Assembly (NCBI GenBank): GCA_001724265.1
Contig: MEDY01000162.1
Location: 1-59,290 of the forward strand
DNA: 59,290 nucleotides
Reading direction: 5' to 3'
From: Rhizaria sp. SCN 62-66
Lineage: Eukaryota
Shown: one piece after another, positions 158 to 59,290 of the stretch
Numbering within the stretch: position 1 is the stretch's first letter
How the letters are laid out: each line of letters opens with the position of its first letter
Translations under genes and position numbers: made by a program
Notes under the pieces: generated by a model
The model's input: only the letters and a program-made list of their open reading frames with translations
Databases searched by the model: none
What the model was told of the DNA's origin: nothing

Positions 158-1768
158 ATGTCGGGCGACAATGAAAATGCATCATTAAGCTTGATTGACG
201 CACTTGGTGCTTCCTTATCAATCGACGTACGTCACATTCAGTCCTCTGTCTTCGGATGCGATACTTTCCCGCGCTATTTCCAAATCCACTTTCTTGAAGT
301 ATTCACACCTCACATTCGACTCTTTCCCCCTCTCACCTTGTGGTTTACGACGTATCCCTCCTTGCAAAAGGCGACCTTAAAGCCTCCCAAGCAAACCTGT
401 GATTGCACTCCCCCGGCCCACGCCTACAGCGACGCTGACACTGAGCCCGACTCCAACTCAGGCAGTGACAGTGACTCTAGTTGCTCAAATATCACAAGTA
501 ACGTCGCTTCTGTTGCTCCTGCTGCTGCTGCGTCTGCGTCTGTGTCTGCCACCGCCATCACGCCTCGCGCCGCCGCCGCGCAGCAGTACCTCGGCCCCCG
601 CCGCCACCACTGCTCGCACTGGCGAGAAGAGTTCGATCAACACATTGCCACGGTCCTGGAGGAAAACGGCTACCCTCGTCGCTCCCTTGGTCCCCGCAAC
701 ACTCATGTGCTCTGCAGTCGCGCCCCGCGCCGCCGCCGCTCACCGCCCTGCCCGGCCGCGCTGACTCTGCTCCAGATCAAAGCCCGCTGTGCGTTGCGTC
801 TTACGACGGAGATGTGGCTGGAAGTGGACAAGCAGAAACCGCCGATGGTGGAGACGAGGTTTTTCATCGATTTCACCGCAAATGGGACGGATCCTCCTGT
901 GGACGCTGTGTCAGAACCGTACGCGGTTGAGAAGGTCTTCGCGCTTATCATCACGGTCGACTATGAAACTAACCCTAGCCATGCTGAGCTGTTTGCACTA
1001 GCTTTTCAGGCTGATTTTGGAGCTCCTCCGTATCTACACACGTGTTTTGTTCCGGGCATAACACAGTCACCCGCCACTGCTGCTGCTGTTACTGCTGCTG
1101 CGCCTACGGCTGCTTCTGCTGCTGCTTTGGCTGCTGCTGATGCAACTTCGACTGCTGATGCTGCCAGTGCTGCGGATGCTTCGACTGCTGGTGATGCTGA
1201 TGTTGACTCTACTGCAAAGCCACTGCCAGCATCGTCAGCAGAAGCAGCAGCAGATGAGGATGAGGAGGCGCGTTTTAACGCCAAGCGCGCTACTTTGCCG
1301 TATTTCACTCTCTCTGCGTCTGCTTGCGCCCATTCCCTCATCACCATGCCCCCGGGCACCGACATCGTCTACGGTGAAAACCGCGCCGCTGAACTGGGGG
1401 TAACCTACCCTGTGGGGACTGTGCTGGTTGTTCCCCGCGCCGTTGCTCCGAGTTGCGAGCTCCACAAGTACAGTCTTGGCGACATGCCGATGTTTATCGT
1501 TCACCGTGAGTGTACCGCATCTGACCTCCCGGGCGGGGCGGCCGCAGTCGGCCGGGTCACGTCGTGCGTGCCAAAGGGGCAGCGGATGCTGCGCGGGGAC
1601 GCGAGCAAGGCGCCGTTTTGCGATGACGTCCTGCGGTGGGTTAGGGAGGAGCAGAGACTGGGGAAATGTGCGCGGTCGATGTTGCGGTTCCACAGGATCG
1701 TGAGGGATATTGAGGAACATGATGCCATGTATGGACCTGACTACCATGACGATTATAACAGCGATTAA
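158..1768 (+). CDS. Hypothetical protein with degenerate cyclophilin-like fold (paralog A)
   Basis: ORF ends TAA. Ordered segments FFIDFTANG / LIITVDYETNPSHAELF / YLHTCF / DIVYGEN / VGTVLVVPR / MFIVHREC / AVGRVTSC parallel the cyclophilin pattern and match the C-terminus of the gene at 18791-21247. Possible in-frame intron 227-370 (GTACGT...AAG). Confidence 0.6.
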   Translation: MSGDNENASLSLIDALGASLSIDVRHIQSSVFGCDTFPRYFQIHFLEVFTPHIRLFPPLTLWFTTYPSLQKATLKPPKQTCDCTPPAHAYSDADTEPDSNSGSDSDSSCSNITSNVASVAPAAAASASVSATAITPRAAAAQQYLGPRRHHCSHWREEFDQHIATVLEENGYPRRSLGPRNTHVLCSRAPRRRRSPPCPAALTLLQIKARCALRLTTEMWLEVDKQKPPMVETRFFIDFTANGTDPPVDAVSEPYAVEKVFALIITVDYETNPSHAELFALAFQADFGAPPYLHTCFVPGITQSPATAAAVTAAAPTAASAAALAAADATSTADAASAADASTAGDADVDSTAKPLPASSAEAAADEDEEARFNAKRATLPYFTLSASACAHSLITMPPGTDIVYGENRAAELGVTYPVGTVLVVPRAVAPSCELHKYSLGDMPMFIVHRECTASDLPGGAAAVGRVTSCVPKGQRMLRGDASKAPFCDDVLRWVREEQRLGKCARSMLRFHRIVRDIEEHDAMYGPDYHDDYNSD

Positions 1769-18790: not shown

Positions 18791-21247
18791 TCAATCCGAT
18801 GGATGAGTGTGATGAAAGTGAGAGAAGTATAACTTTGACGGCTTATTTTGATCGTAAATGACGCATTTTTCCCCAGAGCTGAATGCCATAAGAAGTGAGA
18901 TCAACACAGTTGCGTCAAAGGGCTGCTCCCCCTCATCAGTGGCATTGCTCAAAAGATCTTCTTCACCGCACCGCACGCACGCAACCACCCGGCCGACGGG
19001 CACGGCGCCGCGCAGCAACGCTGCGGCACACGGACGGAAGACAACAAACCACGGTGTGTCCGGCTCTCCCGACGAACCTTTTAGGGTGACTTTGCGCGGG
19101 TACATCAACACTGTGCCGGGGGCAAAGGTTGCGTCAGAGTCCGGACCGGGCGCGGTGTACTCGCCGTACGCAATGTCAGTGTCGGGAAACGAAATAGGCA
19201 CAGCCACGCAGGGGTTATTGTCGCTGGTATAGTGGTGCAGCGTGATGAACGACGGTCGGTGCGCAATCCTTTCCCCAGCGGGCCCGGCGGGCGCAAAACA
19301 CGTGTGCATGACCATGCCCAGTGCGCCAACTTGAGCCGCTGCGCGGAAGTACGCTGCGTGGCTAGGAAACAGCGTGTCGTCCAGCCGAATCAGCATGCGG
19401 TACTTCTCTTTCTCGTCTCCATCAGGATTGTAGAAATCAAAGTTCATCAACACGTCTGCCTGTGCGTCCCCGCCAAGGCAATTACGTGCAAAGGCAAGAG
19501 TACGTTCGCGCGCCTTGGCCTGCAGCAGCGCCAGCGCGCCCGCAGTCAGCGGGCCAGTGGGCTATTGATCGCTCGCTGGGCTATCGTTCCACCAACCGCC
19601 CACCGAAATGTGGAACCGCGGTGGATACCCGCATTTCTCCAGCTGCAGCGCAATGTAAGCGTCAAGTGCCTCCATCTCTGTGCGTTTTCTCGGCTCCGCG
19701 AACGCGCGCGCGTCTGCCATCGCCTGTCGCCGTTGCGCGGCCTGATCCGCAGTCTCCGCGGCCGCAGGCGCGACCACCTCCATGCGCTCGAGCATCGCGG
19801 TTAGCTGCGCGCGCTCCCAAAGAACGGTGGCGTCGCTCTCCGCGCAGGCGGCGCATGGCAGCAGCGCAAGCAGCTGCGGGCCGCGCGCCGCGATGAACTC
19901 GGCGAGAACGGGGTTGCGCGGCACATCGCCTTCGGTCCGAACGCGGGGGTCGGGGGTCGTGTCGCCCGCTGCAATCATCAGCCGCAGCGCGTGCAAAACC
20001 TCCGCAATGTGCATAACATCACCTTTGCAGTCCAGCACCGCCCAGAGGAGCATTCGGTTGCAGTGCTTGACGTAACCGCGGTCGAGCAGCATGCGCGCCA
20101 TGTTTTCCGCGTTGGCAGCGGTTGACATAAGGGCGATAAAGAGAAGTGGAATGCTCTGCAGGATAACACTGGTGTTATCGCCGCGGCACTAATCGTGAAG
20201 ATACCCGTTGCGCCAAGGCAGAACAACTTCCAGCAGGCCTCCCTGTGCTACTCGTTGCGTAAAGTGCGGCACAGCCTTTCCCAGGCGCGTGATAATGTCA
20301 GCCATCAGTACAAGCCGGGCATCTGTCTGCGTTTGATTTGAAACATATTTCATTGATGCAATCACTGTGTCGCAACGCTCTGTGGTAAAAACTGAGCGCA
20401 ATCCGTCATCATCGTCGTCGGGAAACGCAAACACACAGCAGCGCAGCAGTTGCAAGTCACCGATATGGCTCATCTCTCCCGCGAGAAACGCAAACTCATC
20501 GCTGCGTGCAAACTCGCGCACGTCTGCGGCGCAGTCGCTGCCGTACGCAATAAAAACGCGCGTCAGAGCCTTCAACGCGGCGGCGTGCAGCGAGCGGTAG
20601 AGCTGGACGCCCTCTGCCGTGCGCTCCAACCCGCGCCGCATGAGGGGCACGAAGCCGGCGAGGGCGGGATAGGGCAGGCGCGGGTCTATTGTTGCTAGAT
20701 CTACCGCGATGTCAAAGCAGATGTCGCACGCCGCAATCGCGGAGTGACAATCGTTGTGCGACTTGTACTTAGCTAACAGAATGTGCTCCAAGAGCAACTC
20801 CGTAAACACGAGCAAACTCGCAAGTGCCTCAACTTTGACAGGGATAGGGAGGGGGAGACAAGCCCGCGGAGCCACATAGCGCATCACAGGAAGCATTTTA
20901 AACGCTGTTTCACAGACGCCAACAGTCATGAGCACTTTAGCGAGTCGTGCAAGCGTGTTCTCCGGGATGAGGTCGCTACTCAGGAGGAATTTCATTATCC
21001 CAAGGACGAGTTCGAATCGCTTCTCGGCGTCATCGTCAGCAGTGAGTTCCAGAAACCTCAAAAGCATCTCGATCGTATTCTGGTCGCGCAAAAGAGTCAT
21101 GCATGTCTGAATTGCTACTTCGTTGTTGTGCGCAAGGTACACCGAGAAAAAAGATTTGCTAAGCGCGTTGATGTCAGCGAGGCGTGACGACAAACCCGTC
21201 ACAGCGCCCAATGCCTCGCAGAGACGCCGGATCTAAGTCGCACTCAT
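18791..21247 (-). CDS. Helical-repeat (ARM/HEAT-like) protein with C-terminal degenerate cyclophilin-like fold (paralog B); 3 in-frame TAG
   Basis: Track ORFs 20189-21211, 19562-20128 and 18791-19453 share one frame and are separated only by TAG (21233-35, 20189-91, 19562-64). 818 aa when read through. Similarity to paralog A spans the 19562 TAG. Stop TGA. Confidence 0.75.
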
Positions 21248-22031: not shown

Positions 22032-22552
22032 TCACAACTCCAGGTCCGGGTCTCCAGCAAGCTCTTCCGCGGGCACTGAGCCGGGGTTCACCAGCAGCGC
22101 AATCTCGTGGCGCGCTGTGGCGATGGCGTCGGGCGAACCGGTCAGCGTGATCTCGCGCAACGGAAACCCTGAAGGCATGTCGGCCTGAGAGAAAGCGAAG
22201 ATGATAATGACCAAGTCGTGTTGGGAAAGGCTTATGAGCATTTTTAAGTTTGGAGATGCAAAACTGAACCTTTATGTGAGATATTCACAAGGATCGCAAA
22301 AGAATAAAGAAATATTCCGAATCAACAATGATATGTCTTAAAACAACAAACTTGTTCGTTGCGTACCTCGCGCTGGATCTGGATGGTGCATGAGGACTTG
22401 GCCTGGAGCGCGCGGATCGTCTCGCCCTGGCGGCCGACAATAATGCCAACGAGCTAGTTCGGGACGCGGATCGCGACAACGTCGCTGCAGGGTGCAGGTG
22501 CGGGCGTGGGCGCGGGCGCGAGCGGGCCTGCGGAGGAGACCTTGGGGGGCAT
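22032..22552 (-). CDS. Small KH-domain RNA-binding protein; 1 in-frame TAG
   Basis: Exons 22552-22367 and 22184-22032: IRVPN*LVGIIVGRQGETIRALQAKSSCTIQIQRE|ADMPSGFPLREITLTGSPDAIATARHEI, a type I KH domain with GxxG loop. TAG at 22454-56. Stop TGA. Exon 1 is absent from the ORF track. Confidence 0.8.
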
Positions 22553-37854: not shown

Positions 37855-38125
37855 CTCTAAGTTGAGGCCTGCTGCCGCTTGCCGTCGCGAGTGGCGGGTT
37901 GGGCAGCACTACAAATCAAGCTCGCCGACTGACTGAAGCACCCTTTGAACATGATTGGCCTATTCCACTTTCATCGTCAAATAGTATTTACTGGGATGAA
38001 ATTGAAACAAATGTGGCTTAACTATTCCTTAACGTAATTTTAACTCCACAGCTTAAGTTTAACCCCGCCATTTCTTGACTTGTATTTGCGCTGAATCTTG
38101 TCCCCTGCCGCGTCAGCAGCAGAGC

Positions 38126-39501
38126 ATGCAGGAGCTGTTGCTGCACCTCTTCATCGTCGCGCCCGTGGTCCAGTGGATCTTCCGCCAGCCCATGTGGCCC
38201 AAGGTACAGAAGATCGCCGCTGCGGTGGGTTTCCTGGCGCTTTTGGCGGCCTTCTCGGTGGGCAGCGAGTACATGGGCTCGAAGCCGAACCTATACCAGA
38301 TCACCGGGATCCGCGTCGACACCCCGCAGGCGGACCTGCGCCGCCACTTCCGCACCGTCGCCGCCAAGCTGCACCCGGACAAGAACCCGTCCCCGACGGC
38401 GGAGCAGGAGTTCATCGTGTTCCGCGAGGCCAGCGAGTTCCTCGCAAACGCGGCCTACCGCGGCAACTACGACCGCTTTGGCGCCGCGGCCATCAAGCTC
38501 TCCGAGAAGCCCGACAGTGGCGCAAACGACCTCATCGTCGGCGCGGCCGTGTCGGCGCTCATGTTCTACTCGATCTGGGCTTTTCTGACGTTTCTTATGC
38601 TCTCCGGCAAAGACACAGCGCGCGGACGCACCTGGGTGTACGTCTTTTTCGCTCTTATCTTCTTAAATATAACAGCGTATATTTTACAATTGGGAAAATA
38701 ACACGCAGTTTAATTATATAATGTTGTTTTAAACTTTTTATTTAATCGTTTTATGTTCCTAACCTTTCACACTATCAAGATATCCACACTTTTTTTTCCC
38801 TCACATTGCTCCTATATGACTTTCGCCCTGCTTCGCTTGCCCCTCCCTCTCTCCCTTTCGATGATTGCGCCGCACTTAGACTGACTGCGCTACTGGGCAT
38901 GCTCTTGCTCGAGATCCAGATGACGCTGAACACCGACTTCGACATCCTCACCGGGCTCCTTCCCTCCTGGACCCCTCACGAGAAGATGTCTCTCCTCCAC
39001 AAACTCTTCGCCTCTGTGTTTTCGGCGTGCCGCATTCTGTCACAGGCGACGTACGAGGACGAGGAGGCCGCCGAGCGCCAGCGTCTCGCGCTCATCCACG
39101 AAAACACCAAGGCCGCCGTCGCGCTGCTTTTATCGGTCCACAACCAGCTCGCCGCAATGAAGCTCTCCAAGGCCGCAGCGACCGCCCTCAACAATGCTAA
39201 CAACGCTAACTCTAGCGCGAGCGCGACTGTGGGCGACGCGGCGGACGACGACGAGCCCGTAGTGTCGACCTCGGCCCCCGCGCCGCTGCCGGCCGCGCCC
39301 GACGTCCTGGAGCGGCTGCAGCGCGCGCAGGAGCTGCTGGGCGCTCAGGGCGGGCTGCGGGACGGCGCGCCGATGCGGGGCAACGCGCCCGGGCGGGGGC
39401 ACGCGCACGGTGGCGCGGCCGTAAAGGAGCGGAACCCGCTGTGGTCGCTTGTGAGCTACGCGGTTGTGCCGATTGTGCTCAATTACCTGCTCAACCGGTG
39501 A
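38126..39501 (+). CDS. Multi-pass membrane DnaJ (J-domain) protein
   Basis: Exons 38126-38637 and 38880-39501 (377 aa). NLYQITGI...LRRHFRTVAAKLHPDKNPSPTAEQEF...YRGNYDRFG, flanked by TM helices. Start uncertain. Stop TGA. Confidence 0.85.
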
Positions 39502-39996
39502 ATCGGTAAAGGGAAGTTGTCTCATTCAGCTAAAGCTTGAGAATAGTCAGTTTATGTCGGGATATTCGTGGGATCAGAGTATGGTATTGTTTCATAGTAA
39601 TAATAAAGGCCAGACGTATCTAAATTTATTTGTTATGCACGACGATCATCTAAGACAGAGCGCATATCTTGGGTAATGTGTTCTAAGAAAAGCGTTTGTG
39701 GTTAGATTTGCTATCGGATGTCGCGCCACCATCCGCGAGACTTCACGAGAGTATTATGCTTCATCACATGCGTGTAAAGAAATTATAATTTGTGCGTATT
39801 GCTTGAAATGTAGTAGTTATTTATGTCATATTTGGACACTTTTGTTGACTGTCTGTACCACGAGTTCTAACTCAAATCTTGTTGACTTTGCATCTTTCGC
39901 GCCCGCACAGAGTCTTAACCTTTAACTTCACTCCCGCGCCTTACCGCTTGACGGCTCCGCGCTGCTGCGTCCGCTAGCTGGCCTCCACTGGGTGTG

Positions 39997-42900
39997 ATGT
40001 CCGATTTCCGGCCGCTGCATGCCAGCGCGCCTGAGCTCCGTGTCATCATGCACATCGACATGGTCCGTTCTCTCAACCATCGTTCGATTAACTCCGTTAA
40101 CTCACTGCGTCGCATCATAAGCGCTGAATCACCGACTGAAAAGACCTTGTTTTTGTATGACGTCTCACAAACTGTATCTGTTACAATGATATTTTTGCTA
40201 CTTGACCCTCACAGGACTGCTTCTATGCGCAGGTGTAGCGCGAGCGCTTCCCCTCGTGGGTCGACGAGCCCGTCGCCGTGGTGCAGAACGGCCGCCTCTG
40301 CGTGACCTCAAACTACCACGTGCGGCTCTGCGGGCTTAAGAAGCTCAACCGCATTGCGCAGCTGGCCGCGTTGCTGCCGCACACGCGCTTCGCGGCCTCC
40401 CACATGCCGCGCTACCGCGCCGCCTCGCGCGCCTGGCGAGACATCGCGCAGGCGTTTCCCTCGCTCGTCGTGCAGAAGAAGAGCATCGACGAGGCGCTCA
40501 TCGACCTCACGCCGCTCGTGCGCGCGCGCCTGCTGGAGGTTGTGGTGCCGCTGCCGCCGCCCGCGAGCGGTGCGCTCGCCGCCCTCGTGGCAGCCCGCCG
40601 CGCCGCCGCCGCCGCCCTCGTCGCCGCGAGCGCGTCCGCGACCGCGGCGAACGGAAGCGGGCGGGCGCAGGGCGGGGGGTTGGGCGCAGCGGCCTCGGCG
40701 GCGGCCGCGGCGGGGCGCGCGGGCGTGACGCTGCAGCAGGAGGAGATCGGGCTACTGTCACTGGCGCAAAAAATCAGCATGGCTACGAACCCGGCCGACG
40801 CCAAGGACCTCATCAGCAACGAAATGAGCGCCGCGCGCGGCAAGGGCGCGGCAGCAGCCCCGGCGGTGGCTGGTGTAGGGGGCGCGGGGGCGGTGACCGC
40901 TGGCGGCTACTCTAATCCGAGTGATAATTCTCACGCTTTCCCGAATGCGAAGATGGCTATGACTGCGAATGTGAATGTCATTGGGAGCAACAGTGCAGGC
41001 GCAACGGGCGACGCTAGCGTGCGTAAGAGCATTTACAGCAAGCGCCCGGTGCAGCCTCAACAGCAGCAACCGCAACAGCAGCAACAACCGCAGCAAGCAG
41101 CTAATGGCACTAATGGCAACGATGACGCTACCTCTAATCACGATCGCACTGTCTCGGCTGCGACTGGAACTGCTCCGAGAACAAGCGACCCCAACTCAAC
41201 TAACGCCGCAGCGAACGAGAATAGAAGCAACAGCAGTGGTGCAAACGCCGAGTTTCCTCTCAAGCCCACCGCGTGGCAAGTCAAAGAGCTCGGCGAGCGC
41301 GACGCCGCGGCTTACCTTAAAATGACCGCGTTGTCACGTGCCGACCGCGTGCGGTACGTGCACAGCATGCACCCCGTCGACTACTGCAGGGACATGCCCG
41401 CGATGCCGCCTGTGAACGCTGCCTCGGCAAGCGCTGGCTCAGTGGCCGGGGGCGTGGAGGTTGGCAAGGGCAGTGTGGGGACAGTACCGTTGCTCACGGT
41501 CGTTTCCAGGGCTCTGCTTGCTCAGCAACGCGCGCGCTGTGCTGGCAATGACTGTGGCAGCAATGCCGACAGTGCTCGTGCCAGCGTCAGTGTGGGTGTC
41601 AGTGTCAGTGCGAGTGCGCGTGCGAGTGTGGGTGAGTGTGAGCGGGGACACCGTGAGTGTGAGCGTCAGCGCGGATGCGTCTATGGCGACGAAGAGTCCA
41701 AGTGTTCGAAACTCGAAGAGTCTAAATACTGCTCGTCGCAGTACTTAGACGATGATCCCACGGCAGCAACAACCACGACAGCGACGGTGTTGCTGCCGCC
41801 GCCTCGCCACTGGGCCCCGCTCCTCTCAACGCCGCTCTCCACTGCAACCGCCGGCAGCAACTGCGCAATTGCAGCAGCGGACGCGCCGCCGGTGGTCGTG
41901 GCGGTTGGCACCGTTGTGTGCGCTGCTGCAATTGTGGGCGGCGGGCTTGCACCGAGTGACCGCGAGCTGCGCCACAGCAACCGCGAACAACAACAGCAAC
42001 AGCATCAGCAGCAGCAACGGATGACTGACTGTCAGTCCGAGAACGAAGGTGTGTTTCCGTGGGCTGGCGCAGCGTGGCGCGCGTGGGGCGGCAGTGCTCC
42101 ATCCGGCCCCCATCTCGTCACTATGGACAACAGCGGTCCCCGCATGCCAACTATGGGACAAATGCTCTCTGCAGCGACGTGCGCGCAGTGTGGCGGCTTT
42201 AACTATCTTACGCGCGCCAACAACAACAGTACCGGTGACAAAAACGCCAGTCATAGCACGGTCGATGACGCTAGCACTGCTGCAGCGCAAGGCACCGCTC
42301 CCGTTGCAGAAGCTGTCGTATCTGCCGCGGCAGCGATGCCCGGGCCGTTGAGCTTTGGTGTTGCGTCCGTCACGCTGCAAGCGTGCTCTGACGGCTGTGA
42401 CACCGCGCAGACTGACGCCGCTTCGATTAAGAGCGTGAACAAGACGCCGGCGACGGAGACAGGCGGTGTGACTGACAGCGAGACCGAGACAGACAACGCC
42501 AGCGTCGGCGGTAAAATCACCGACAACTCTAAAGGCGGCGACACTGACATCGACTTCACGCGGACAGCCGCGCTGCTGGCGGCGTCCGGAGTGCCTGCGC
42601 AAGCGCCTCTCCACACACTGCCTGCCAACTGTGTCTGTCACTGCCGCGCCGCAACAGCTGCGGCAGCAGCGTCGATGACATCGGTGGAGCAACAGCAGCA
42701 GCAGGCGCTGCACACGTTCCTGCTCTGCATCGGCTCTCAGCTCGCATATCGGCTGCGCTTCAATATCTTTTACTCTCTGGGCTGCACCACGAGCGTCGGT
42801 GTCGCCGCGAATCCTATGCTCGCCAAGATGGTATCGGCCACGATGAAGCCCAACCAGCAGAGCGTGCTGCTGCCCGCGGCCGAGCAGGCGTTTCTGGCCA

Positions 42901-45450
42901 CGCGCGCGCTCGCTGACGTGCCGATGTTTGGCCCCAAGCGCCAGGAGAGGGCCGCCGCCGCTGGGTTCGAGATGGTACGCATTATCCGCGAACATAGTCG
43001 AAATATTCATCACTCTGTTACAATGTGCACTCTCGTGAACTAGTTGTATTATGTTGATTATTTTTTTAATCATGATTGTCTCTTTATGCTTCGCTGATTC
43101 ACCTGATAACTTTTGTTTGTAACGCTGTTGATGTGTGTAGATTTCCGACTTGCAAGGCATGAGTTTTGCCCAAATCACAGCTCGACTCACTGCGCCTTCG
43201 GTCACAGCTGCACCGCGCTATGGCAACGATGTGGCGGATGGCGACGACTGGGACAACGACGACGACACCAGCGTCGGGCCTGCGAGCAAGAGGGCAGCGC
43301 TTCCTGGCAACGACGGTACGTTGACAAGCATGAATGAAAACAACGCAAACGCGATGTACTCTATTTCTTTCTTGCTTTGGTACAATCTTTGAATATCTGC
43401 GCTACATGTATACTGGTTTTCATTTATTTTTATATCTAACGAGTCTGTATCATTCTGTCGTTTCTCAACACTCTCGCCTTAGGCCTGTCCGCGGACTCCG
43501 CGGCGCCGCTGGCGTCGCTGCTGCTCTCGATCGCGCAGGGCCAGGACGCGACCGTGGTCACCCCGCACATCGTCTCGGGCGACATCGGCGTGATGAAGAC
43601 GACGCCGACGACCTCGCACGCCGCGCGCGTGCCTCTGCTGCAGTTCCTGTGCGAGACAATGGCGCAGCGCCTCGATGAAGAAGCTATCGACAACGCGCGC
43701 CGGCCCACCGCATTCGGTGTGTCTTGGTACTCGCGGGTCAAGCGCGCCGCGGCCACGCGCGTCGTGCCGCTGCCCAGCTTCCGCATCGGCTCGAACGGCG
43801 TCGAGAATCCCCAGGCCGCGGCCTCCGCAATGGCGGCAAACGCGGTACGCACAACAATGAAAACGTTTGGATATATGATGCAACAGCCTGTTAATTGTGT
43901 GTAAACTCATGTTGGTGTCTATGTCACACTATTTTCTAACATTATTTATTGTTTTTTTAAACATTTTACCCTGTCTTTGCTAGTTTCGCGTCCTGAGTGA
44001 GAACGTCGGCCCGACAGAGTCGCTGGCGACGCTGGGTGTCTCGGCCCGTAAGTTCGTTCCGCTCGCCGGCACCACGGGTATCTTTGCTGCGGGCGCGCTG
44101 CGTGGCGCTGGCGGCTTGACTTCCGTTGTCAATCCCTTCGCCTCAATGACCGGCACCCCACCAGACGCTGACGGAACAGCCACGACAACTCCTGGCAAAG
44201 CTGGTGGCAAGGGCGTGCGTGGCGCGAGAAAAGGCGCTGGTCCTGACGTGGCGCTGGGGGGATTCTTTAAGCGCGTGACGCGGCAGCACAGCGGCGTTGA
44301 CCTCGGTGCTGGTGCGGACTCTGACTCGGGGTCAGACTTGGATGTCCGTGTTCAGACGCAAAGCAACGGCGCTGGTGCGGTCAAAAGTAAGGGCGGCGGA
44401 GCCAGCGCTAGCGATGACGAGAGAGGCGGATTCACGTACCTCGACTCCAGCGGCGAAGGCGACGACGATGCTGACGCTGAGTGCTTTGAGTTCGACTGTG
44501 ACTGGGACGGGGACGTTGACGGCGAGGATAACGGCGATGAGGAGCAGGAGAACGGGGATGATGGAGAGTGCAGCAAAGATAAGAACACCGACGGTCATAA
44601 CAAAGACGTTGCTGACTGCGACAATAGCAAGCAGGCTAGTCACCGTGATCACGGCGATGACAACAACGCGGGCAATGCACCTGCTCAGACTGTGACAGAG
44701 ACTGAAGAAAAGGCCGCGTCATCAACGGCTGTGAAGGTCAAGGTCGAAGGCTCAGCTACCGCTGCGGCTAATCCCAACTCGTGCAGTGTCATTACGTCTA
44801 CGGCGGCAGCTCTGCGTAGCAACAGTGGCAGTGGTCTTGCCCCTAGCAGTGTCTCCGCTGCTGCGGGCAACATTGCGCCAAGTCTTTTGCCTACCTCCAC
44901 ATCCGCTGCCGTTGTCCCCGCCACTCCCGCTAAGCGCGCTCAGAGTGGCCGCGTGCCCGTTGCCCACCGTGACAGTGACGGAGATCTTACCGGTGCCGGC
45001 GAGCTCGATGCTGACCTCGCCTGGCAGCCGCCCTGCTTTAGGCCCCCCACTGCGGCCTGGGCCGACGATCGCGCCGTCTCTGCGTCCTACTTCTACACCG
45101 CCGCGCTGCCGACTGCGGCCGCGCCAGTCGCGCCAGTATCACTGCCACAGCTACAGCAGCAGCAGCATGGTTTGCAGGCGCAGGCGCAAGCGCAGACGCA
45201 CCCCACGCACGCGAACGCGCAGCTTGTCCCACGATCTCCAGCCGCTCCAGCGCGAACGGTTGCCGGCGGTTCCCCCCAGCAGCGCAACACCGCGCAGGGC
45301 GCGCCTCTGCTGCTGACGCCGGGACTGACGCAGGGCCAGCCGGGCCATAGGGGACCGGCGCAGACGCAGGCGTCGCACCGGGAAGATGGCTCGACGCCGG
45401 CGAAGGCGGGATCGATTTACGCGCGGCACAAGCGGAATATCGATCAATGA
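39997..45450 (+). CDS. Y-family translesion DNA polymerase (eta/iota-like); 1 in-frame TAG
   Basis: Exons 39997-40062, 40215-42974, 43141-43315, 43483-43844, 43984-45450 (1609 aa). RVIMHIDM|DCFYAQV*R, PVAVVQ, TSNY, YRAAS, SIDEALIDLT, SVGVAANPMLAKM, KPNQQ, VPMFGPK, AQGQD, LGVSARKF. Stop TGA. Confidence 0.9.
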
Positions 45451-48665: not shown

Positions 48666-51600
48666 TTACAGATGCATGAATGACTGGAGATCGGCCGCGG
48701 GAACCACGAGATTGTTCGCCCTCATGTAGGCGATGAACGACGCCCACTCGCCGGTTTTGCTGGCGCTGCCGCTGCCGCGCGCCTGCTGCGGGGCGAACGT
48801 CGAGCAGTCGCAGATGATGATGAGCCCGCGGCGCGCGCGCGTGAGCGAAACCTACACGAATACAACACGAAAAACAAATCCGTAATAGAAGTTAGAAATC
48901 ATCTCAATGAATGAAATAGGAAACAAAACAATGATATTACGAGTGATATTACGAGTGATACAAGCTTCGAATGAAACGTACGTTCATTCGCCGGCGGTCC
49001 TTGACGAAGCCGATTGAGAACTGCTTGGAGCGCACCATGGACATGATCATCAGGTCCTTCTCGTGGCCCTGGTACGCGTCGACCGAGTTTACCTCGACGG
49101 CCTGGTCGAACAAGCAGGCCGTCTCGGCCGTGCCCGCGAGCGCGCGCGCCACGTCCTGCCGCACGCCGCGGTCGCGGTCGAGCGCGCGCAGCAGCCCGCG
49201 GATCTCGCCGCACTGGCCCGCGTACGGCGTCACGATGCCCACGCTTAGCGGCGTCGCGTCGCCCGGCGTGGTTGTGCCTCCCGAGGCAGCGCGCCGCGGC
49301 AGGGCGCTCTTCTGCGCGAGCACGGCGTGCGCGGCGACGCACGCCGCGAGCGCGGCCTCGGCGTGGTTGACCCAGCTGCAATGAGCGCCGACGGCCGCGC
49401 TCACGCAGAGGCCGTTCTACACCGTCCTCTTGCCGCCGCCCAGGGCCGCAAGCAGCGCCTGCGTGGCGCGCGACGCGGCGGCGGGCAGCGCAAACGGGGC
49501 GCTGGTGTCAATCAACACCATGGGCGAGTGCGTGAAGGGCGGCACCGGGGGCTGTCGCGTAGTCGGCCGGCTGGAAAACCAGGTGAAGCCACGCACGGGC
49601 GGGCGGTCCTGGTCGATAAAGCCGGGAGTCGTGAGCGCGCCGCTGTAGAACGTGCGCGAGGACCACACTGCGAGCGCCGAGTGCATGCGGTGCTGCCGCA
49701 GCAGCATGCAGCCCGTCGGCACGAACAGCCGCGCGACAGACGCTGTTGCTGCCGCGGCACGAGTCCCAGGCGCCGCCGCCGCGCGGGCCGCGGCGATTTT
49801 ACGCAGTAGCGTGGGCGTGCATGCGAGGCGCGCAAACATAGGCGAGTCCGCGCCCAGCAGCATGCCGGCCTCGTCGCTGCCCGCGCCCGCGATCGGCGGC
49901 AACTGGCAGTGGTCGCCCACGAACGCCACGCGCGCGACGGCACCGACGCCCGCCGCGCCCCACGCGCAGAGCTGCGCCCGCGTCGCGTACGTGCGAGACG
50001 TCGTCAGGTCGACGGCGGCTGCCATCAAGGTACACTTGGAGGCGATGCGTTCGCCGTTCCGGGTGAGCTTCTGCGCAAGGTTCTCGAGCTCCCAGCCGGC
50101 CGCGGTGGGCTCGGTGCGCGCGAGCAAGGATAAAGGCAGCAGTGCCGCGCGCTCGGGCGCCTGCGAGGCTTCGTCGACAATGACGAGAGAGAAGCCGGAC
50201 TCGCTCTTCTTGCTGTTGTTGAGCGACAGCGCCGCGCGGCGACGCTCCTGCTGCGCGTAGGCCGCGGGGCTCGAGTGGCTGTACTCGCGCTGCGCAAGGA
50301 CGGCCAGCGGCACCTTGCTGTGCTTCTTGGCGAGCGCGCAGGCGAGAGGCGTCCCGTAGTTGTCCGGACGGCGCTGAGTGCAGCCGACGCAGGTGCCGGC
50401 GATCACGTCCGCGGTCATGACGAGCTTGTTTTGGAGCTCGCGTACGTTGACGGTGCTGCCCTCGCGCAGGGCGCGGCCGAGCGACTCGCTGAGCTCGAGC
50501 AGCGTGGCGGCCCACACCAGGCAGCTGGAGCGCGCCAACGCGGGCACCGCCGTCCACACGGGGCCCGGGACGCGCGGCAGCTCCACAGCGGACACGACGG
50601 GCGGGTCGGCGGGCGCGTGGGCCGTGAGCGGAAACTTGCTCCGGAGCAGTTCGAGCACAGTCGTCAGCACGGGCAGCGGCAGCCAGTCGGCCGGCCTGAA
50701 GACGGCCTTCACCGGCGCCGGCGGCAGAGCGAGCGCCTCCGGCTTTGCCGTTGGTGTTGACAGTGACAGGGACGCGAACCGGGTAGCAAGCTATGATTTT
50801 GCTGGCTGCGCAGGGATCAGGATCTGATGCTGCTCATCATCCTTTTTGTCGTCCTGCTTACCGTCCTGCTTATCGCCCTGCTTCTTTGCGGCCTTGGGGC
50901 GCGCTGCAACCTTCTTATCACGCTTCGCAATGAAGCCCGACGCATAGCCGTGAAGTTGGAGCCGCACCAGCAGGGCCTTGCTGCCTTTCTCGAAGCGGAG
51001 CTGCTCGACGGCGTCCTGCACGTCCGGCGTGGCGAAGCTCTCCTCGTTGGCTACAGCGGCCGCGAGCGCCCGCTCGGCGGCGTCGCGCGCGCAGTGAAGC
51101 ACCAGCAGCGCGGCGCGCAGCGGGGCGCCCACGTCGAAGCTGTTGAGGACCTGCAGTTCGAGCGAGTTTGCCTGCAGCCCCGGCAGCAGCCCCGTGGCCT
51201 TGGCGCGCTTCGCGGATTCGCGCAGGTGCGCCTCGACACGGGCGGGTTCAAAGCACACCTCCTCGGGGCGCGGCGCGCTGACGTCACCGCTGACGCCGCG
51301 GGGGCAGAAGTGTTCGAGTGCGGTGTCGAGATAGGACGTGGACGCGGGGCACAGACTCGAGGACGCGCGGTCGCCGCTCTCCCACAGCACGTGCCTGCCC
51401 CTCGTGCGCTTCGGAGCCACTGCGCCGGGCAGCAGGTACGTCTGCGCGATCTCGCCCAGGAACCCCCACGGCACAAGCCCCGGCGAGTTCACCCCTGGAA
51501 CGCCCCCGTAGAGCGCGCCGGCGCCCGGGAGCGCGGCCGTCTCTGCGAGCCAGAAGGGCCGCGGGTAGGCCGCGGTCGCGCACATGACGTTCTTGCCGAT

Positions 51601-54600
51601 GCGCACCACGCGCAGCGGCGCCAGCTCCAGCGCCGTCGTCGGGTACACCAGCGACAGGACCGTGCCGGCGCCGCGAGTGTGCCGCGCCTCGGCCTCCACC
51701 GCAGCCCGCCTTGTCACCGCGGTGGCAGCGATGTTGGCAGCGGCGGCGGCGGCCGCGTCGGCGGCGGTCAGACTGCGCACCACCGCGGCATCGGCCTGAG
51801 CGGCCAGGACGCGCACGCGGTCGGTCAGCAGGTCCAGCGCGGCGTTGGAGTAAGCAGACAGCAGCACGCGCGTGGGCGCGACGTTCGCCTCCGGTCCGGC
51901 GGGCGCGCGCAGCAGGGCGCCGCGGACCCAGAGCCAGACCGCGGCCGAGATGGTCTGCGTCTTGCCTGTGCCGGGCGGGCCCTGGATCACGTTGAGCGAC
52001 GGCGCGCTCAACAGAGCCGCGGCCTCGCTGGCGGCGCCGTTAACGGCGGCGGCGAGCGCGGCGCTCGACTCACGCGGCTCGAAGAGGACGTTGCTAACGG
52101 CCGTGCGCTGCGACGCGTTGAGATCCAGCGCCGCAAAAAACGGATACCACATCTGCTCCGTCGCAGGCGCGGCCGCCGGAGTTGCGGGGACGCCGCGGGG
52201 GGGCGCGGCTGGCGGCGCGAGCGCGGGCGGCGGCGGGACGGAGAGGGAGATCTCGCGGAGCATGTCGACGGTGGTCTGGCGCAGGTGCAGCGCCATCGCG
52301 CTCAGCGGCTGCTGCGCGCCGGGGCAGAAGCCGTCGAACGAGTGCAGCTGCGTGTACACGGCGGGCCAGGCCGTCGCGACGCCGTCGGGCGTGAGCTGCA
52401 TCAGCGGCGGACACAGCAGCCGCAGCAGCGCAAGCAGCACGGCCATGTCGTCCGCCTCCAGGTCAGTACTATTGGGCTGGCAGAGCTTGGTCGCGGCGCG
52501 CCCCATCCCGGCCAGCCCCGACAGAGTGAAGGAGAAGCGTAAAAGCGGGGCGTCGTCCGCGGCGATCGCGGCGGCGTTGCCGTCAGAGAAGCTGAGCGGC
52601 ACGGTGACGACGACAGTCTTGACATTGGTGCCGTGGACGCATCGTCGCACCGCGGCCGCGACCGCCTGCAGCACCGCCGCGCCTGCGGCCTCGCCCACCG
52701 CGACCGAGACGCCCCGCGGGAACGACAGCGGGCCGGACGTGCGCTGCAGCCGCTGCAGGCGCGTGGCCACTGCGCGCAGCAGCCAGGGCAGGACGCGGCG
52801 CAGCGCGGGCTCCACGATCAGCGCGAAGGCGGCGCGGCGCGCTGCAGGCCACATGCACAGCCACGGCTGCTGCAGCAGCTCCACCACCTCGGTCACGCTG
52901 TCGCCCCCGCTGAGGGCGTTGCCGGCGCCGACTGCGGGCGTGAAGCCGGCGAGCGCGGCCACCGCGGCAGTCTGTGCCGAGGACGCCTCAAGGCCACGGC
53001 CGAAGTTACGGACACGACCACGGTCGCCCCCGTTGCTGCTGCCGTTGCGGTGATGCTTGATAAAGGCGGAAAACGGGGTGGGGTCGCCGCGGCGCACGGG
53101 GGCGCCGACGCTGAGGCTCGAAGCCGTGAGTGCAACGTCAAGGGGACTTTGCGTGCGGCCCTCAGAGTGATCTTCCTCGCGAGCATCATCGCCCTCGCCG
53201 TCGTCATCACTGTCAGACGAGTCGCCGGCGCCGGGGAGGCCGAGGCGGCGCTCGAGGCCGCCGCGCGGCGCGAGCACGCGGATGGCCCGGCGGATGCGCC
53301 GCGAGACGTCGAGGCTGGCGCCGAACTCGAGCGTGAGCCCCGCGCCCAGCCGCCACGGGAGCGAGGCGGGGGCCGCGGCGCTGAGCCCGGACCGCGCGAC
53401 GGCGTCGCCGGGCCGCAGCGGCGCCGCCATCGATGTGCCCAGCGCGGCCGTCCAGATCGTCTCCAGGTGCGCGCAGTGGCCGCAATGCGCTGCGCAGGGC
53501 GGCCGGGCCGCGCTCGCGCGCGCGCGCACGCCATCGTCGTCGCCGTCGAACAGAGCGCGGCCGCCCGCGAGCAGCGCCGCGCTGCGGACGTCCACGCGCG
53601 CCTGCATCGCGCTAGGCAGTGGGGGCAACTGGGGCAACGGGGGCGGCGCCGCCGTTCGCCCGGCGACCAGGAGGCCCGGTGCAGGGCGGCCCTCTGGCGC
53701 GGAGGCCGCGCGGCAGAGCGCGCGGAGGTACGCGTGCGGGGCCGTGACCTTGACGTCGATCTTGACCGTGCCCGTCGCAGTCGCGTCGTAGGTCCGGATG
53801 ACGACGCCCTCGATCGGCGCCCAGGGCAGCGGCGGCGGACACACGGCCTGCGGCGGCAGCGCCAGCGGCGCGCAGATGCCCGCGGCAGAGGAGGACGCGC
53901 GCCGCTGCGATGTAGTCGTGGCCTTGGTCGTGGCCGCGGCCGCCGCCGGAAGTGTGAATGGGTTCCACGAGCAGCGCGCCGACGCACATCCGCACTGTGC
54001 GTTGCTGGCGCTGCTGCTATTGCTGCTGCTGTTGGTGGGACCGCCACTAAGAGCGGCGGCAGCGCCCCCGCGAGCCCAGTTGTCTTCGTCCACCGAGATC
54101 ACCGGCGACGGTGGCACCGCCGCCGCCGTCGCCGCCGCAGAGCCCGCGCCTCCCGCCGCGCCCGAGTCCGCGTGCTGTGCGCGGCTCCAGAAGGCGTTGA
54201 CTGTGGGCCGCGCGCCCGTGAGCGCGGCGTAGCGAGGCGGCATTGCGGGCGCGGCCAGCGCGCCGGCGGCGTCGATGGAGCGCGCGAACGCGATCGCGAC
54301 CTCGCTTTGCTCGTGCACTGCGGCAAATAAAAAGGGCTTGGCCAGCGCACTCTCCCAGGTCCCGGCCGCAAGGGGCAGTGATAGCCAGACGACGGCTCCG
54401 TTAAGCGGCGCTGCGCCGACGCCCGGCAACGCGATGGACCCCGGAAAGCACTCGACGGGCGGGCGTGGGGCGCGGACGCGCGCGCGGAGCTGCTGTTGCT
54501 GGCGCTGCTGCTGCTGGCGCTGACTCAGCTGCTGGTGCAGCTGCCGCTGCTGCTGCCGCGCGTCGGGCGGGTCGAGCACGAACTCGCGCGTGCCGTTGAC

Positions 54601-55734
54601 GTGCAGCGCGGGCGCGGCGGCCTCCGCGCGCGGCCGGCGCACGCGCACGCCGGTGAGTGCGGCGCCCGCCGTGGCCGCGGGCACGATCAGCGTGAGGACG
54701 CTCTCGCAGGGCAGCCACGCGCACGCGCAGTCTTCGCCGCTGCAGCGCGCGCTGCGGGCCTCGCCAGACCAGCGGGAGAGCGGGCACGCGCCGGGGAGCT
54801 TGTTTCCTGTCTTCTTGTTGTCCGGTCCCGGCTTCTTGTCGTCGCGGCCGCGTTTTCCTGTCCCTTTGGCGGCCTTGCCACCGTCCCTGTCCGACATTGA
54901 GACCGAGGCCGCGCTGCGCAGGGGCGCGTAAGCGCAGGGGAAGTCGAGCCGGCCACGCGCGTCACCGCTGAGGCTCGACGCGCCCGAGGCGCGCACCTCC
55001 AGCGCGGGCTCACCGAAGTACTCTGCCCGCTCCGCGCGCTCTGCCGCTTTCGAGTCACCAGTGTCACCGGTTCCTGCGCCTGGGCCGGAGCCGGCTCCGG
55101 AGCGGCCGAGCCGCACCTGGAGGGACTCGAGCAGCGGCAGCGGGAGTGTGGCACCCGATGCGGCCTCGGCGGCCACGCGCGCGGTGCGCAGCGCCGTCTG
55201 CACTTCGAGCTCATCGCAGGTCAACATATGCACGAGATACATGCGAGTGCGCTCAGCGAACGACGGCAGCGCGAGTCCGCCTCCACCAGCCGCGAGGCTG
55301 GGGCACTGGTGCTCGCGGAGAGTCTGGCGCAGCGCGGCGGCAAACAGATCGGCGCTGGGAAGCGCGAAGTCGACTTCGGGCAGGGCGATCGTGGTCGCTG
55401 CGGAAAAAAAAAGGAGGGTGATGCGTAGATGCGATTGTGGTGAGATTAATTTTTTATAATTTCTTGGTTGGAACTGCCGGTTTAAACGTAATATTTCAAC
55501 TGCTTATAATATATACGTTTCAATACTCCGGGAGAAAAAAAGCCTATATTCAAATTGTTGACATTTGTGGGGTGATTTTGGCTCAGCAGGCTCGGCGCGC
55601 TACGTACCTCGAGCAGCGGTTGGAGGGATAATGGCTTTCGGAGGCTCTACATTCTCTTGAGGTACGCCAACGGCGTTTGCGTTGGGAACTTGTGCCCGGT
55701 TGGGACGCTATCCTCGTATGGATCGATTCAACAT
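48666..55734 (-). CDS. Superfamily 1 UPF1/SEN1/DNA2-like helicase; 3 in-frame TAG
   Basis: Exons 55734-55608, 55397-48982, 48851-48666 (2242 aa). LNASQRTAV, QGPPGTGKT, SAYSNAALD, IVDEASQA, VGDHCQLPP, RQHRMH, IVTPYAGQ, SVDAYQGHEKD, RRMN|VSLTRAR in order. TAG at 55708-10, 50791-93, 49417-19. Stop TAA. Confidence 0.88.
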
Positions 55735-58587: not shown

Positions 58588-59071
58588 TGCAAACAAGTTT
58601 TGTCGCAAAAGACGAACAGTAGGTGTGTCTTCAAGACACTCAAAGTCGGCAGGTCGATCTGATGTGTGGGCCCAGTCGCCACTCACTGCCGCCGCTGCCG
58701 CATCCGGAAGCTGGACCGAAAAAAGCGTCCGCACCGCGACCGTGGAGGCTCGCAGCTTTCTTGAGTTGGCTTTCCGAAGGAAATACGATGTCATCTGGAC
58801 GTGTATGCGCGATGTAGATACTTTGAATAATTGTCAGGACTTCTGTTCTGTGGGAATGTATTATTGCGCATGGTGATTGGCCGCACCGTTGGCATAAGAA
58901 ACGCGACTTTGTGAAGCCAAGCGTCTTCATGCGCAACTCACATCGGGTTTGCTGCTTTCGTCCACGCTGTCTGGGCCTCCTCTACGTTTTTTACGTCTGT
59001 CTCTCTTTTGCCTTGACTCTTATATGTTTCTTGCATGTCCTTTTCTTTTGCCTTCTTTACCCGCTCTGCAG

Positions 59072-59290
59072 ATGGCGTCCAACAAGGTTGTCAAGGCTAA
59101 CGGCAAGGCCGTCTCCTCGTTCGAGGAGTCCGTCGCGAAGGCGATGGTTGAGCTCCAGGAGACCCCTGAGCTCGCGGGCCTCAAGGCCCTCCACTTCTGC
59201 GCGGCCAAGGAGGTCGAGGTCGCTGGCGGCAAGAAGGCTGCTATCGTCTTCACCCCCTACCGCCTCCACAAGAAGTTCCAGGCCCTCCAG
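59072..59290 (+). CDS. RPS7: 40S ribosomal protein S7 (eS7), partial: runs off the window
   Basis: MASNKVVKANGKAVSSFEESVAKAMVELQETPELAGLKALHFCAAKEVEVAGGKKAAIVFTPYRLHKKFQ. ATG is preceded by a pyrimidine tract and TGCAG acceptor. Confidence 0.92.
   Translation, partial: MASNKVVKANGKAVSSFEESVAKAMVELQETPELAGLKALHFCAAKEVEVAGGKKAAIVFTPYRLHKKFQALQ

Follow-up and report, generated by a model that had tools for sequence, protein, structure and literature searches.

Nuclear genetic codes in which UAG alone has changed its meaning have been recorded with leucine, as in the rhizarian exLh and in phyllopharyngean metagenome-assembled genomes (PMC11687900, PMC5304391), with glutamine, as in Iotanema, Hartmannula, Trochilia and Protocruzia, and with serine, as in Scotinosphaera (PMC11687900). 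UAG is known as a glutamate codon only in other settings, namely in peritrichs, where UAA also encodes glutamate, and in the oligohymenophorean ciliate PL0344, where UAA encodes lysine (PMC11687900), as well as in Blastocrithidia nonstop, in which UAA is both a glutamate codon and a terminator and UGA encodes tryptophan (PMC12153298). The subject of the present analysis is a stretch of 59,290 nucleotides (contig MEDY01000162.1 of assembly GCA_001724265.1, assigned to Rhizaria sp. SCN 62-66), hereafter the window, in which an in-frame TAG takes the place of the conserved motif I glutamate of a Y-family DNA polymerase gene, and in which further in-frame TAGs occur in other genes.

The comparisons assembled below give good support to a sense meaning of TAG, both in this organism and in its relatives, and we regard such a meaning as highly probable. 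Granted a sense reading, glutamate is the best-supported meaning, unproven but favored, and is the most likely one because the polymerase TAG stands at the conserved motif I glutamate. The joint proposition, in which UAG is both a sense codon and glutamate while UAA and UGA still act as stops, tips in our estimate just to the side of being true.

The exLh code (Panek et al. 2017, PMC5304391) shares with the window a rhizarian-affiliated host, the reassignment of UAG only, the retention of UAA and UGA as stops, and the absence of UAG from gene ends. It differs in that its UAG stands at conserved leucines in 82 of 86 hyperconserved positions, with 384 instances in 71 genes (PMC5304391), whereas in the window the one site that is informative holds a glutamate without variation, no leucine is aligned to a TAG (in a very small sample), and TAG is rare. 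The PL0344 code (McGowan et al. 2023, cited in PMC11687900) is similar in that UAG as glutamate is decoupled from UAA; its UGA is a stop. However, UAA encodes lysine there, while in the window it is the terminator of three genes described below (helicase, acyl-CoA dehydrogenase and WD40), and the PL0344 host is a ciliate, while the window host is GC-rich and rhizarian-like, with GT-AG introns of ~150-165 nt where these have been mapped. The peritrich code (NCBI table 30, UAR as glutamate) and that of Blastocrithidia (table 31) likewise have UAG as glutamate, and in Blastocrithidia UAA also terminates; in both, however, UAA is a glutamate codon as well, and UGA is tryptophan in Blastocrithidia, whereas the homology-supported frames in the window contain no in-frame TAA or TGA and both codons terminate. 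Because neither TAA nor TGA occurs in a sense position in these frames and both end genes, the code in the window is not that of the peritrichs, Blastocrithidia or PL0344. The UAG-only codes with glutamine, leucine or serine resemble it in having UAG as sense and UAA kept as a stop, and some likewise come from uncultured organisms known from metagenomes; they differ in lineage and, if glutamate is right, in the amino acid.

In the literature searched, supplementary tables lying outside that search, we found no report of UAG as glutamate in a code that keeps UAA and UGA as plain stops, nor of a second change of code in Rhizaria. The original prediction had described UAG as glutamate with UAA still a stop as a combination not known to it from any described nuclear code. 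This calls for qualification, since UAG is a known glutamate codon and UAA also terminates in Blastocrithidia, but the narrower claim stands: none of the UAG-only codes given in these sources combines UAG as glutamate with plain UAA and UGA stops.

The TAG codon at motif I of the polymerase gene

The polymerase gene lies on the forward strand and begins with an exon of 22 codons (MSDFRPLHASAPELRVIMHIDM; 39997-40062) which runs from ATG to ATG, carries the HIDM part of motif I at its end, and is followed by a GT donor at 40063. An intron of 152 nt (40063-40214, GTCCGT...CACAG), richer in AT than the exons, separates it from exon 2 (40215-42974), which opens with gac tgc ttc tat gcg cag gtg TAG cgc gag cgc ttc ccc, the TAG (40236-40238) being its eighth codon. 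Joined, the two exons read HIDM-DCFYAQV, which is the Y-family motif I spanning the splice junction, and the seven codons 5' of the TAG encode the exact motif DCFYAQV. In a phmmer search against the PDB, the TAG column aligns to the E of DCFYAQVE in human Pol iota, the best match (E 1e-23). The sequence at this point is thus as the original prediction had described it, with an in-frame TAG opposite the motif I glutamate, and its statement that termination here would leave 29 residues agrees with the 22 and 7 codons counted.

Beyond the TAG the frame remains open for 934 more codons. Exon 2 contains a first IMS part (to ~40530), a low-complexity insert, a second IMS part and a weak HhH match, and ends at a GTACGC donor at 42975. 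The Pfam family IMS (PF00817) scores 93.1 bits on this exon against a cut-off of 23.2, and its halves score 70.3 and 28.4 bits when taken separately. Downstream of the TAG, the S-x-D-E motif, which holds the motif III catalytic pair, is intact (SIDEALIDLT, aligned to fDEnfvDLT of Pol iota), the second IMS half (profile positions 114-147) is in frame, and a second block of the polymerase aligns with Pol iota 142-240 in the phmmer comparison with the PDB. The IMS_HHH match is weak, at 17.4 bits under a cut-off of 24.4, and the later polymerase exons gave no Pfam match, whether to the little-finger (PAD) domain or to any other family. Of the earlier assertion that all downstream polymerase motifs are intact, the part concerning SIDEALIDLT and the second IMS half therefore holds, while the HhH region falls below its cut-off and the little finger went undetected. 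The gene continues in further exons or long open reading frames (ORFs) between 43141 and 45447 on the forward strand, comprising a segment from 43141 (ISDLQGMSFAQITARL...), one at 43440-43901 and one at 43984-45447, with the intron ends mapped in part; exon 3 (43141 onward) matches the region of Pol iota after the HhH.

Within the catalytic core, ~720 codons of low complexity, in frame, free of stops and rich in Ala, Ser, Gln and Asn (40540-42700, forward strand), form an insert between the S-I-D-E motif and the remainder of the palm; similar inserts are present in the helicase gene discussed below. The window polymerase thus shares with human Pol iota and the Y family the motif I DCFYAQV(E), the S-I-D-E motif and the second palm segment, and differs from Pol iota in this insert, in a very long C-terminal extension, and in the TAG at the motif I glutamate. 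On its sequence features, the gene is best explained as a working Y-family, Pol iota-like polymerase gene.

Confidence in the meaning of this TAG depends on how firmly the column is held elsewhere. A search of 61 bacterial genomes with the IMS family returned 76 matches in 52 of them, and among the best 30 of these 76 the motif I position, nine residues past the first Asp, is E in every one of the 30 domains. The acidic set of motif I consists of D-x-D followed by E nine residues past the first D, and in the window the Glu position is the TAG itself, such that the set is complete only if TAG is glutamate. We take the same column to be E39 of yeast Pol eta, presumably equivalent on the basis of the yeast sequence and an equal D-to-E spacing of nine. 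The substitutions D30A, E39A and D155A deprived Pol eta of its polymerase activity in vitro and led to ultraviolet sensitivity in vivo (PMC3542068). Were the polymerase TAG read as anything but glutamate, loss of activity in an enzyme that is otherwise intact would be the expected outcome.

Splicing offers ways to remove the TAG from the message, and two such candidates were considered and rejected. Placing an intron acceptor on the AG of this TAG would leave the frame intact, but would delete DCFYAQV, a segment identical to that of Pol iota, which an intron would not preserve. GTG directly precedes TAG at two of the six in-frame sites in the window (GTGTAG; 40233-40238 and 49417-49422), and a mini-intron consisting of GTGTAG at these two sites would be too short and would entail the loss of conserved residues.

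Other in-frame TAG codons and the ends of genes

Reading TAG through long frames, and using only those frames which were anchored by homology, yielded six in-frame TAGs in four genes and ~15,000 codons: one in the polymerase, two in an Upf1-like helicase, one in a KH-domain exon, and two in an orphan gene. The remaining TAGs within long frames lie in 5' leaders or form the AG of an intron acceptor. In three of the four genes Pfam domains flank or surround the TAG, and the TAG-bearing frames supported by homology, which reach 2,184 codons, contain no TAA, TGA or frameshift. The claim that the polymerase TAG is translated is accordingly supported, and extended, by five more in-frame TAGs in the window, by a TAG in a relative from another organism, and by the absence of any gene end at TAG.

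The helicase, of superfamily 1, is encoded on the reverse strand at 48669-55503, with a main ORF at 48952-55503 and a last exon at 48669-48983 that stops at TAA; it matches UPF1 in the PDB as well as the Pfam families AAA_11 (71.4 bits) and AAA_12 (92.7 bits). One TAG, at codon 1571 (50791-50793, reverse strand), falls past the Walker A motif GPPGTGKT and ahead of VIVDEASQ, and the other, at codon 2029 (49417-49419, reverse strand), lies within the AAA_12 match and ahead of TPYAGQ and QGHEKD. Both TAGs are situated between or inside the ATPase domains AAA_11 and AAA_12. A public protein collection holds this helicase as three fragments (P0123, P0121 and P0124). Fragment P0123 ends at the TAG of codon 1571 and P0121 ends one residue before that of codon 2029; the fragments after the two breaks resume 5 and 27 residues downstream, and P0121 and P0124 correspond to residues 198-628 and 634-784 of the query. 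Relatives of the helicase were distant, with representative, word and metagenome searches reaching only 56%, 36-45% and 39-44% identity. The 56% relative (L002), from another organism in the same collection, has an in-frame TAG of its own at a different position, and because of this the TAG trait looks common to a clade. The relative L003 ends at TAA, as does the window helicase. An intron after ...RRMNV (48984-48990 region) is shared in position by the window helicase and its 56% and 39% relatives (L002 and L003).

The KH-domain exon carries its TAG at 22454-22456 on the reverse strand, in the context RVPN-TAG-LVGIIVGRQGETI, and it is residue 59 within a Pfam KH_1 match at 53-89 (37.8 bits). 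The orphan gene (18794-21232, reverse strand, terminator TGA) is a paralog of a gene at ~160-1765 on the forward strand, and its two TAGs lie at 20189-20191 (...YLHD-TAG-CRGDN..., with flanking open frames of 347 and 208 codons) and at 19562-19564 (...SDQ-TAG-PTGPL..., opposite an R of the paralog where the two are 28% identical), both on the reverse strand; the open frames around the two are 347, 208 and 256 codons long. The paralogs, at 160-1765 (forward) and 18794-21232 (reverse), have a common C-terminal domain with 39% identity over 121 residues. A search of 5.8 billion proteins (lengths 447-1,423 residues) returned no homolog of the gene at 18794-21232, and the pair may represent a lineage-specific family.

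Gene ends were examined with the same codons in mind. The codon after 18 long ORFs was TAA in nine cases, TGA in nine and TAG in none, a small sample in which some ends may be intron run-ons. In the four cases where the end is supported by homology, the terminator is TAA for the helicase, the acyl-CoA dehydrogenase and the WD40 protein and TGA for CCDC93, where it lies seven residues past the end of the Pfam match. UAA and UGA thus probably still terminate genes, and UAG is probably not a terminator.

Composition limits what bulk statistics can contribute here. The G+C content of the window varies between 0.51 and 0.75 in 2-kb bins, short GT-AG introns and spacers are richer in AT, and third codon positions are 70-95% G+C, with antisense frames open over hundreds of codons. 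Opposite the helicase, for example, 581 and 595 open codons stand on the two sides of a TAA. Open antisense frames of 158-595 codons occur at 52540 (forward), 28534 (reverse) and 33781 (forward), and naive ORF calling on this contig would produce many false genes. Because antisense frames stay open in this manner, ORF statistics taken in bulk and scoring by codon usage or third-position G+C do not discriminate between coding and non-coding frames. At the right end of the window, a ribosomal protein S7e gene (58898-59290, forward strand; Pfam 53.7 bits) is cut by the window boundary, and the part seen contains no TAG.

Alternative meanings of UAG

Under the glutamate interpretation, UAG would be a rare sense codon in genes that end at UAA and UGA. 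Its decoding would call for a tRNA with the anticodon CUA charged with glutamate, for which the simplest origin would be tRNA-Glu(CUC) with the last anticodon base changed, together with a release factor eRF1 by which UAG would no longer be recognised efficiently.

A number of observations weigh against this interpretation, some touching the identity of the amino acid and others, taken up in the next paragraph, the question of whether UAG is translated at all. Of the six sites only one, that in the polymerase, is informative on the amino acid, the other five being variable or lineage-specific. At helicase codon 2029 the relatives (56% and ~40% identical) have S and A, and the codon lies in an insertion, with a gap in 107 of 132 homolog segments; as a second conserved-glutamate site it was rejected on account of this insertion and of the family G-x-E glutamate, which aligns six residues downstream. 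The KH column is variable, reading Y, S, F, G, G, H, G, Q and S in nine PDB KH alignments, and a hand comparison of translations places the TAG of the helicase relative opposite A in the window helicase. Not one of the residues aligned to the TAGs outside the polymerase is Glu, and not one is Leu. ARAGORN and Rfam detected no tRNA gene in the window, no eRF1 gene was found in it, and prior expectation favors glutamine, as the commonest reassignment, or leucine, as the only rhizarian precedent (PMC5304391). The proposal of glutamate at UAG, as first made, consequently has one strong site in its favor, through the 30 bacterial homologs and Pol iota, and a second informative site was not found. 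If UAG were glutamine, the polymerase would have Gln at its motif I position. Glutamine is the commonest outcome of UAG or UAR reassignment (PMC11687900), CAG is plentiful (415 against 511 GAG in 14,824 codons) and becomes TAG by a transition, Q stands in the TAG column of one of the nine KH alignments, and the polar contexts suit Gln and Glu equally. The only conserved TAG column is nevertheless E in all 30 bacterial homologs sampled as well as in Pol iota, yeast Pol eta is killed when the position presumed to be equivalent loses its carboxylate (E39A; PMC3542068), and a glutamine codon is unlikely to become fixed at motif I of an otherwise intact gene; we consider glutamine unlikely. Some further residue, such as Lys, Ser or Tyr, or ambiguous decoding by more than one tRNA, appears distinctly unlikely: UAG as serine in Scotinosphaera, UAR as tyrosine in Mesodinium and UAA as lysine are on record (PMC11687900), and homologs show S, A, G, R and Y at the uninformative sites, but the argument from the polymerase glutamate applies as it does to glutamine and nothing speaks positively for any one of these residues. 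Leucine, whether inherited with or convergent on the code of exLh, an insect-dwelling sainouroid, seems to us very unlikely. Leucyl-tRNA synthetase ignores the anticodon, such that a change of UAG to leucine should be easy, and the CCDC93 of the window groups with those of the rhizarians Mataza and Paulinella. The only non-canonical rhizarian nuclear code found, moreover, has UAG as leucine and UAA and UGA as stops (PMC5304391). Leucine is, however, aligned at no TAG site, the informative site is an invariant glutamate, and TAG is rare, with six instances in ~15,000 codons against 1,193 leucine codons, compared with 384 in 71 genes of exLh (PMC5304391). The other TAGs stand in polar or loop-like surroundings (HD_CRGDN, SDQ_PTG, AKS_LAT, VPN_LVG), and this hydrophilic setting, combined with the lack of an aligned leucine, argue weakly against leucine and do not separate glutamate from glutamine.

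It might also be that UAG is still a stop, the six sites being pseudogene lesions, artefacts of assembly or population structure, or leaky stops with near-cognate read-through, although we hold this to be highly improbable. In the four GC-rich genes that hold the TAGs, a nonsense change of one base at random would yield TAG in 58-62% of cases, and under a pseudogene model of random decay six TAGs out of six have P = 0.04-0.05, a modest improbability. C at +4 is known as the leakiest termination context and follows TAG at four of the six sites, and context by itself does not dispose of a leaky-stop model. Over 38000-41732, contigs of runs X2 and X3 show 0 differences from the window, but they provide no independent confirmation, because the two contig sets are identical and X2 comes from a possible source study. 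Runs X4 and X7 carry a slightly divergent strain, with single-base differences scattered along it. A contig of X4 ends within the polymerase TAG codon, at 40237; variant sites are a frequent place for contigs to break, and the codon or its neighborhood may be polymorphic in the X4 population. No listed contig of X4, or of X7, a poly(A) metatranscriptome, spans any TAG site, so that the RNA contigs do not cover these codons. One X7 contig crosses the polymerase intron at 42975-43140 without a gap and is therefore unspliced, and because it includes this intron the X7 library holds unspliced RNA or DNA of the organism. Against termination at UAG, nonsense changes alone would have had to disrupt four genes within 59 kb, leaving no frameshift, TAA or TGA in frames of up to 2,184 codons; catalytic motifs are conserved downstream, the relative L002 has a TAG of its own, none of the 18 ORF ends is TAG, and an acceptor placed on the AG of the TAG in the polymerase would delete DCFYAQV. 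The case against pseudogenes accordingly draws on the absence of frameshifts, TAA and TGA, on the downstream motifs and on stop usage, rather than on the six-of-six statistic.

Affinity of the host and significance

DNA of the window is present in bioreactor and wastewater metagenome runs of several studies, and environmental relatives of its CCDC93 gene show 80, 71, 60 and 57% identity. The nearest named CCDC93 sequences are those of the rhizarians Mataza sp., Paulinella spp. and Lapot gusevi. In a single-gene tree built from the best database matches only, the window falls in an environmental clade inside a Paulinella and Mataza group, apart from holozoans, which suggests that this uncultured, intron-bearing eukaryote is probably rhizarian-affiliated, without being placed more exactly. 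A 1.8-kb contig (L004) in an otherwise bacterial assembly (G001) carries a fragment of a eukaryotic CCDC93 that is 51% identical to that of the window; the large contigs of this assembly (C1-C16) have 31 tRNA matches, bacterial-looking, and the fragment is either contamination or a hint of a bacterium living with a related protist. Scans of viral contigs for relatives of the window returned nothing.

Whether the window belongs to an undescribed code, with UAG as glutamate and UAA and UGA as dedicated stops, in a wastewater-reactor clade of rhizarian-affiliated protists, is in our assessment an evenly balanced question. The proteomes of the organism and of its wastewater relatives are mis-annotated, because gene callers split genes at TAG, as the public fragments show. 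Nuclear codes in which UAG and UAA differ in meaning are rare, and bear on how eRF1 discriminates between codons by their third base. If the glutamate interpretation is true, the window would offer the first stop-to-glutamate change limited to UAG, the known UAG-only changes being to leucine, glutamine and serine, as well as a second independent reassignment of UAG among Rhizaria, with another amino acid than in exLh. The window would further represent a natural amber suppressor system of the tRNA-Glu type in a GC-rich genome, in which the codon, still rare, may be at an early stage of codon capture.

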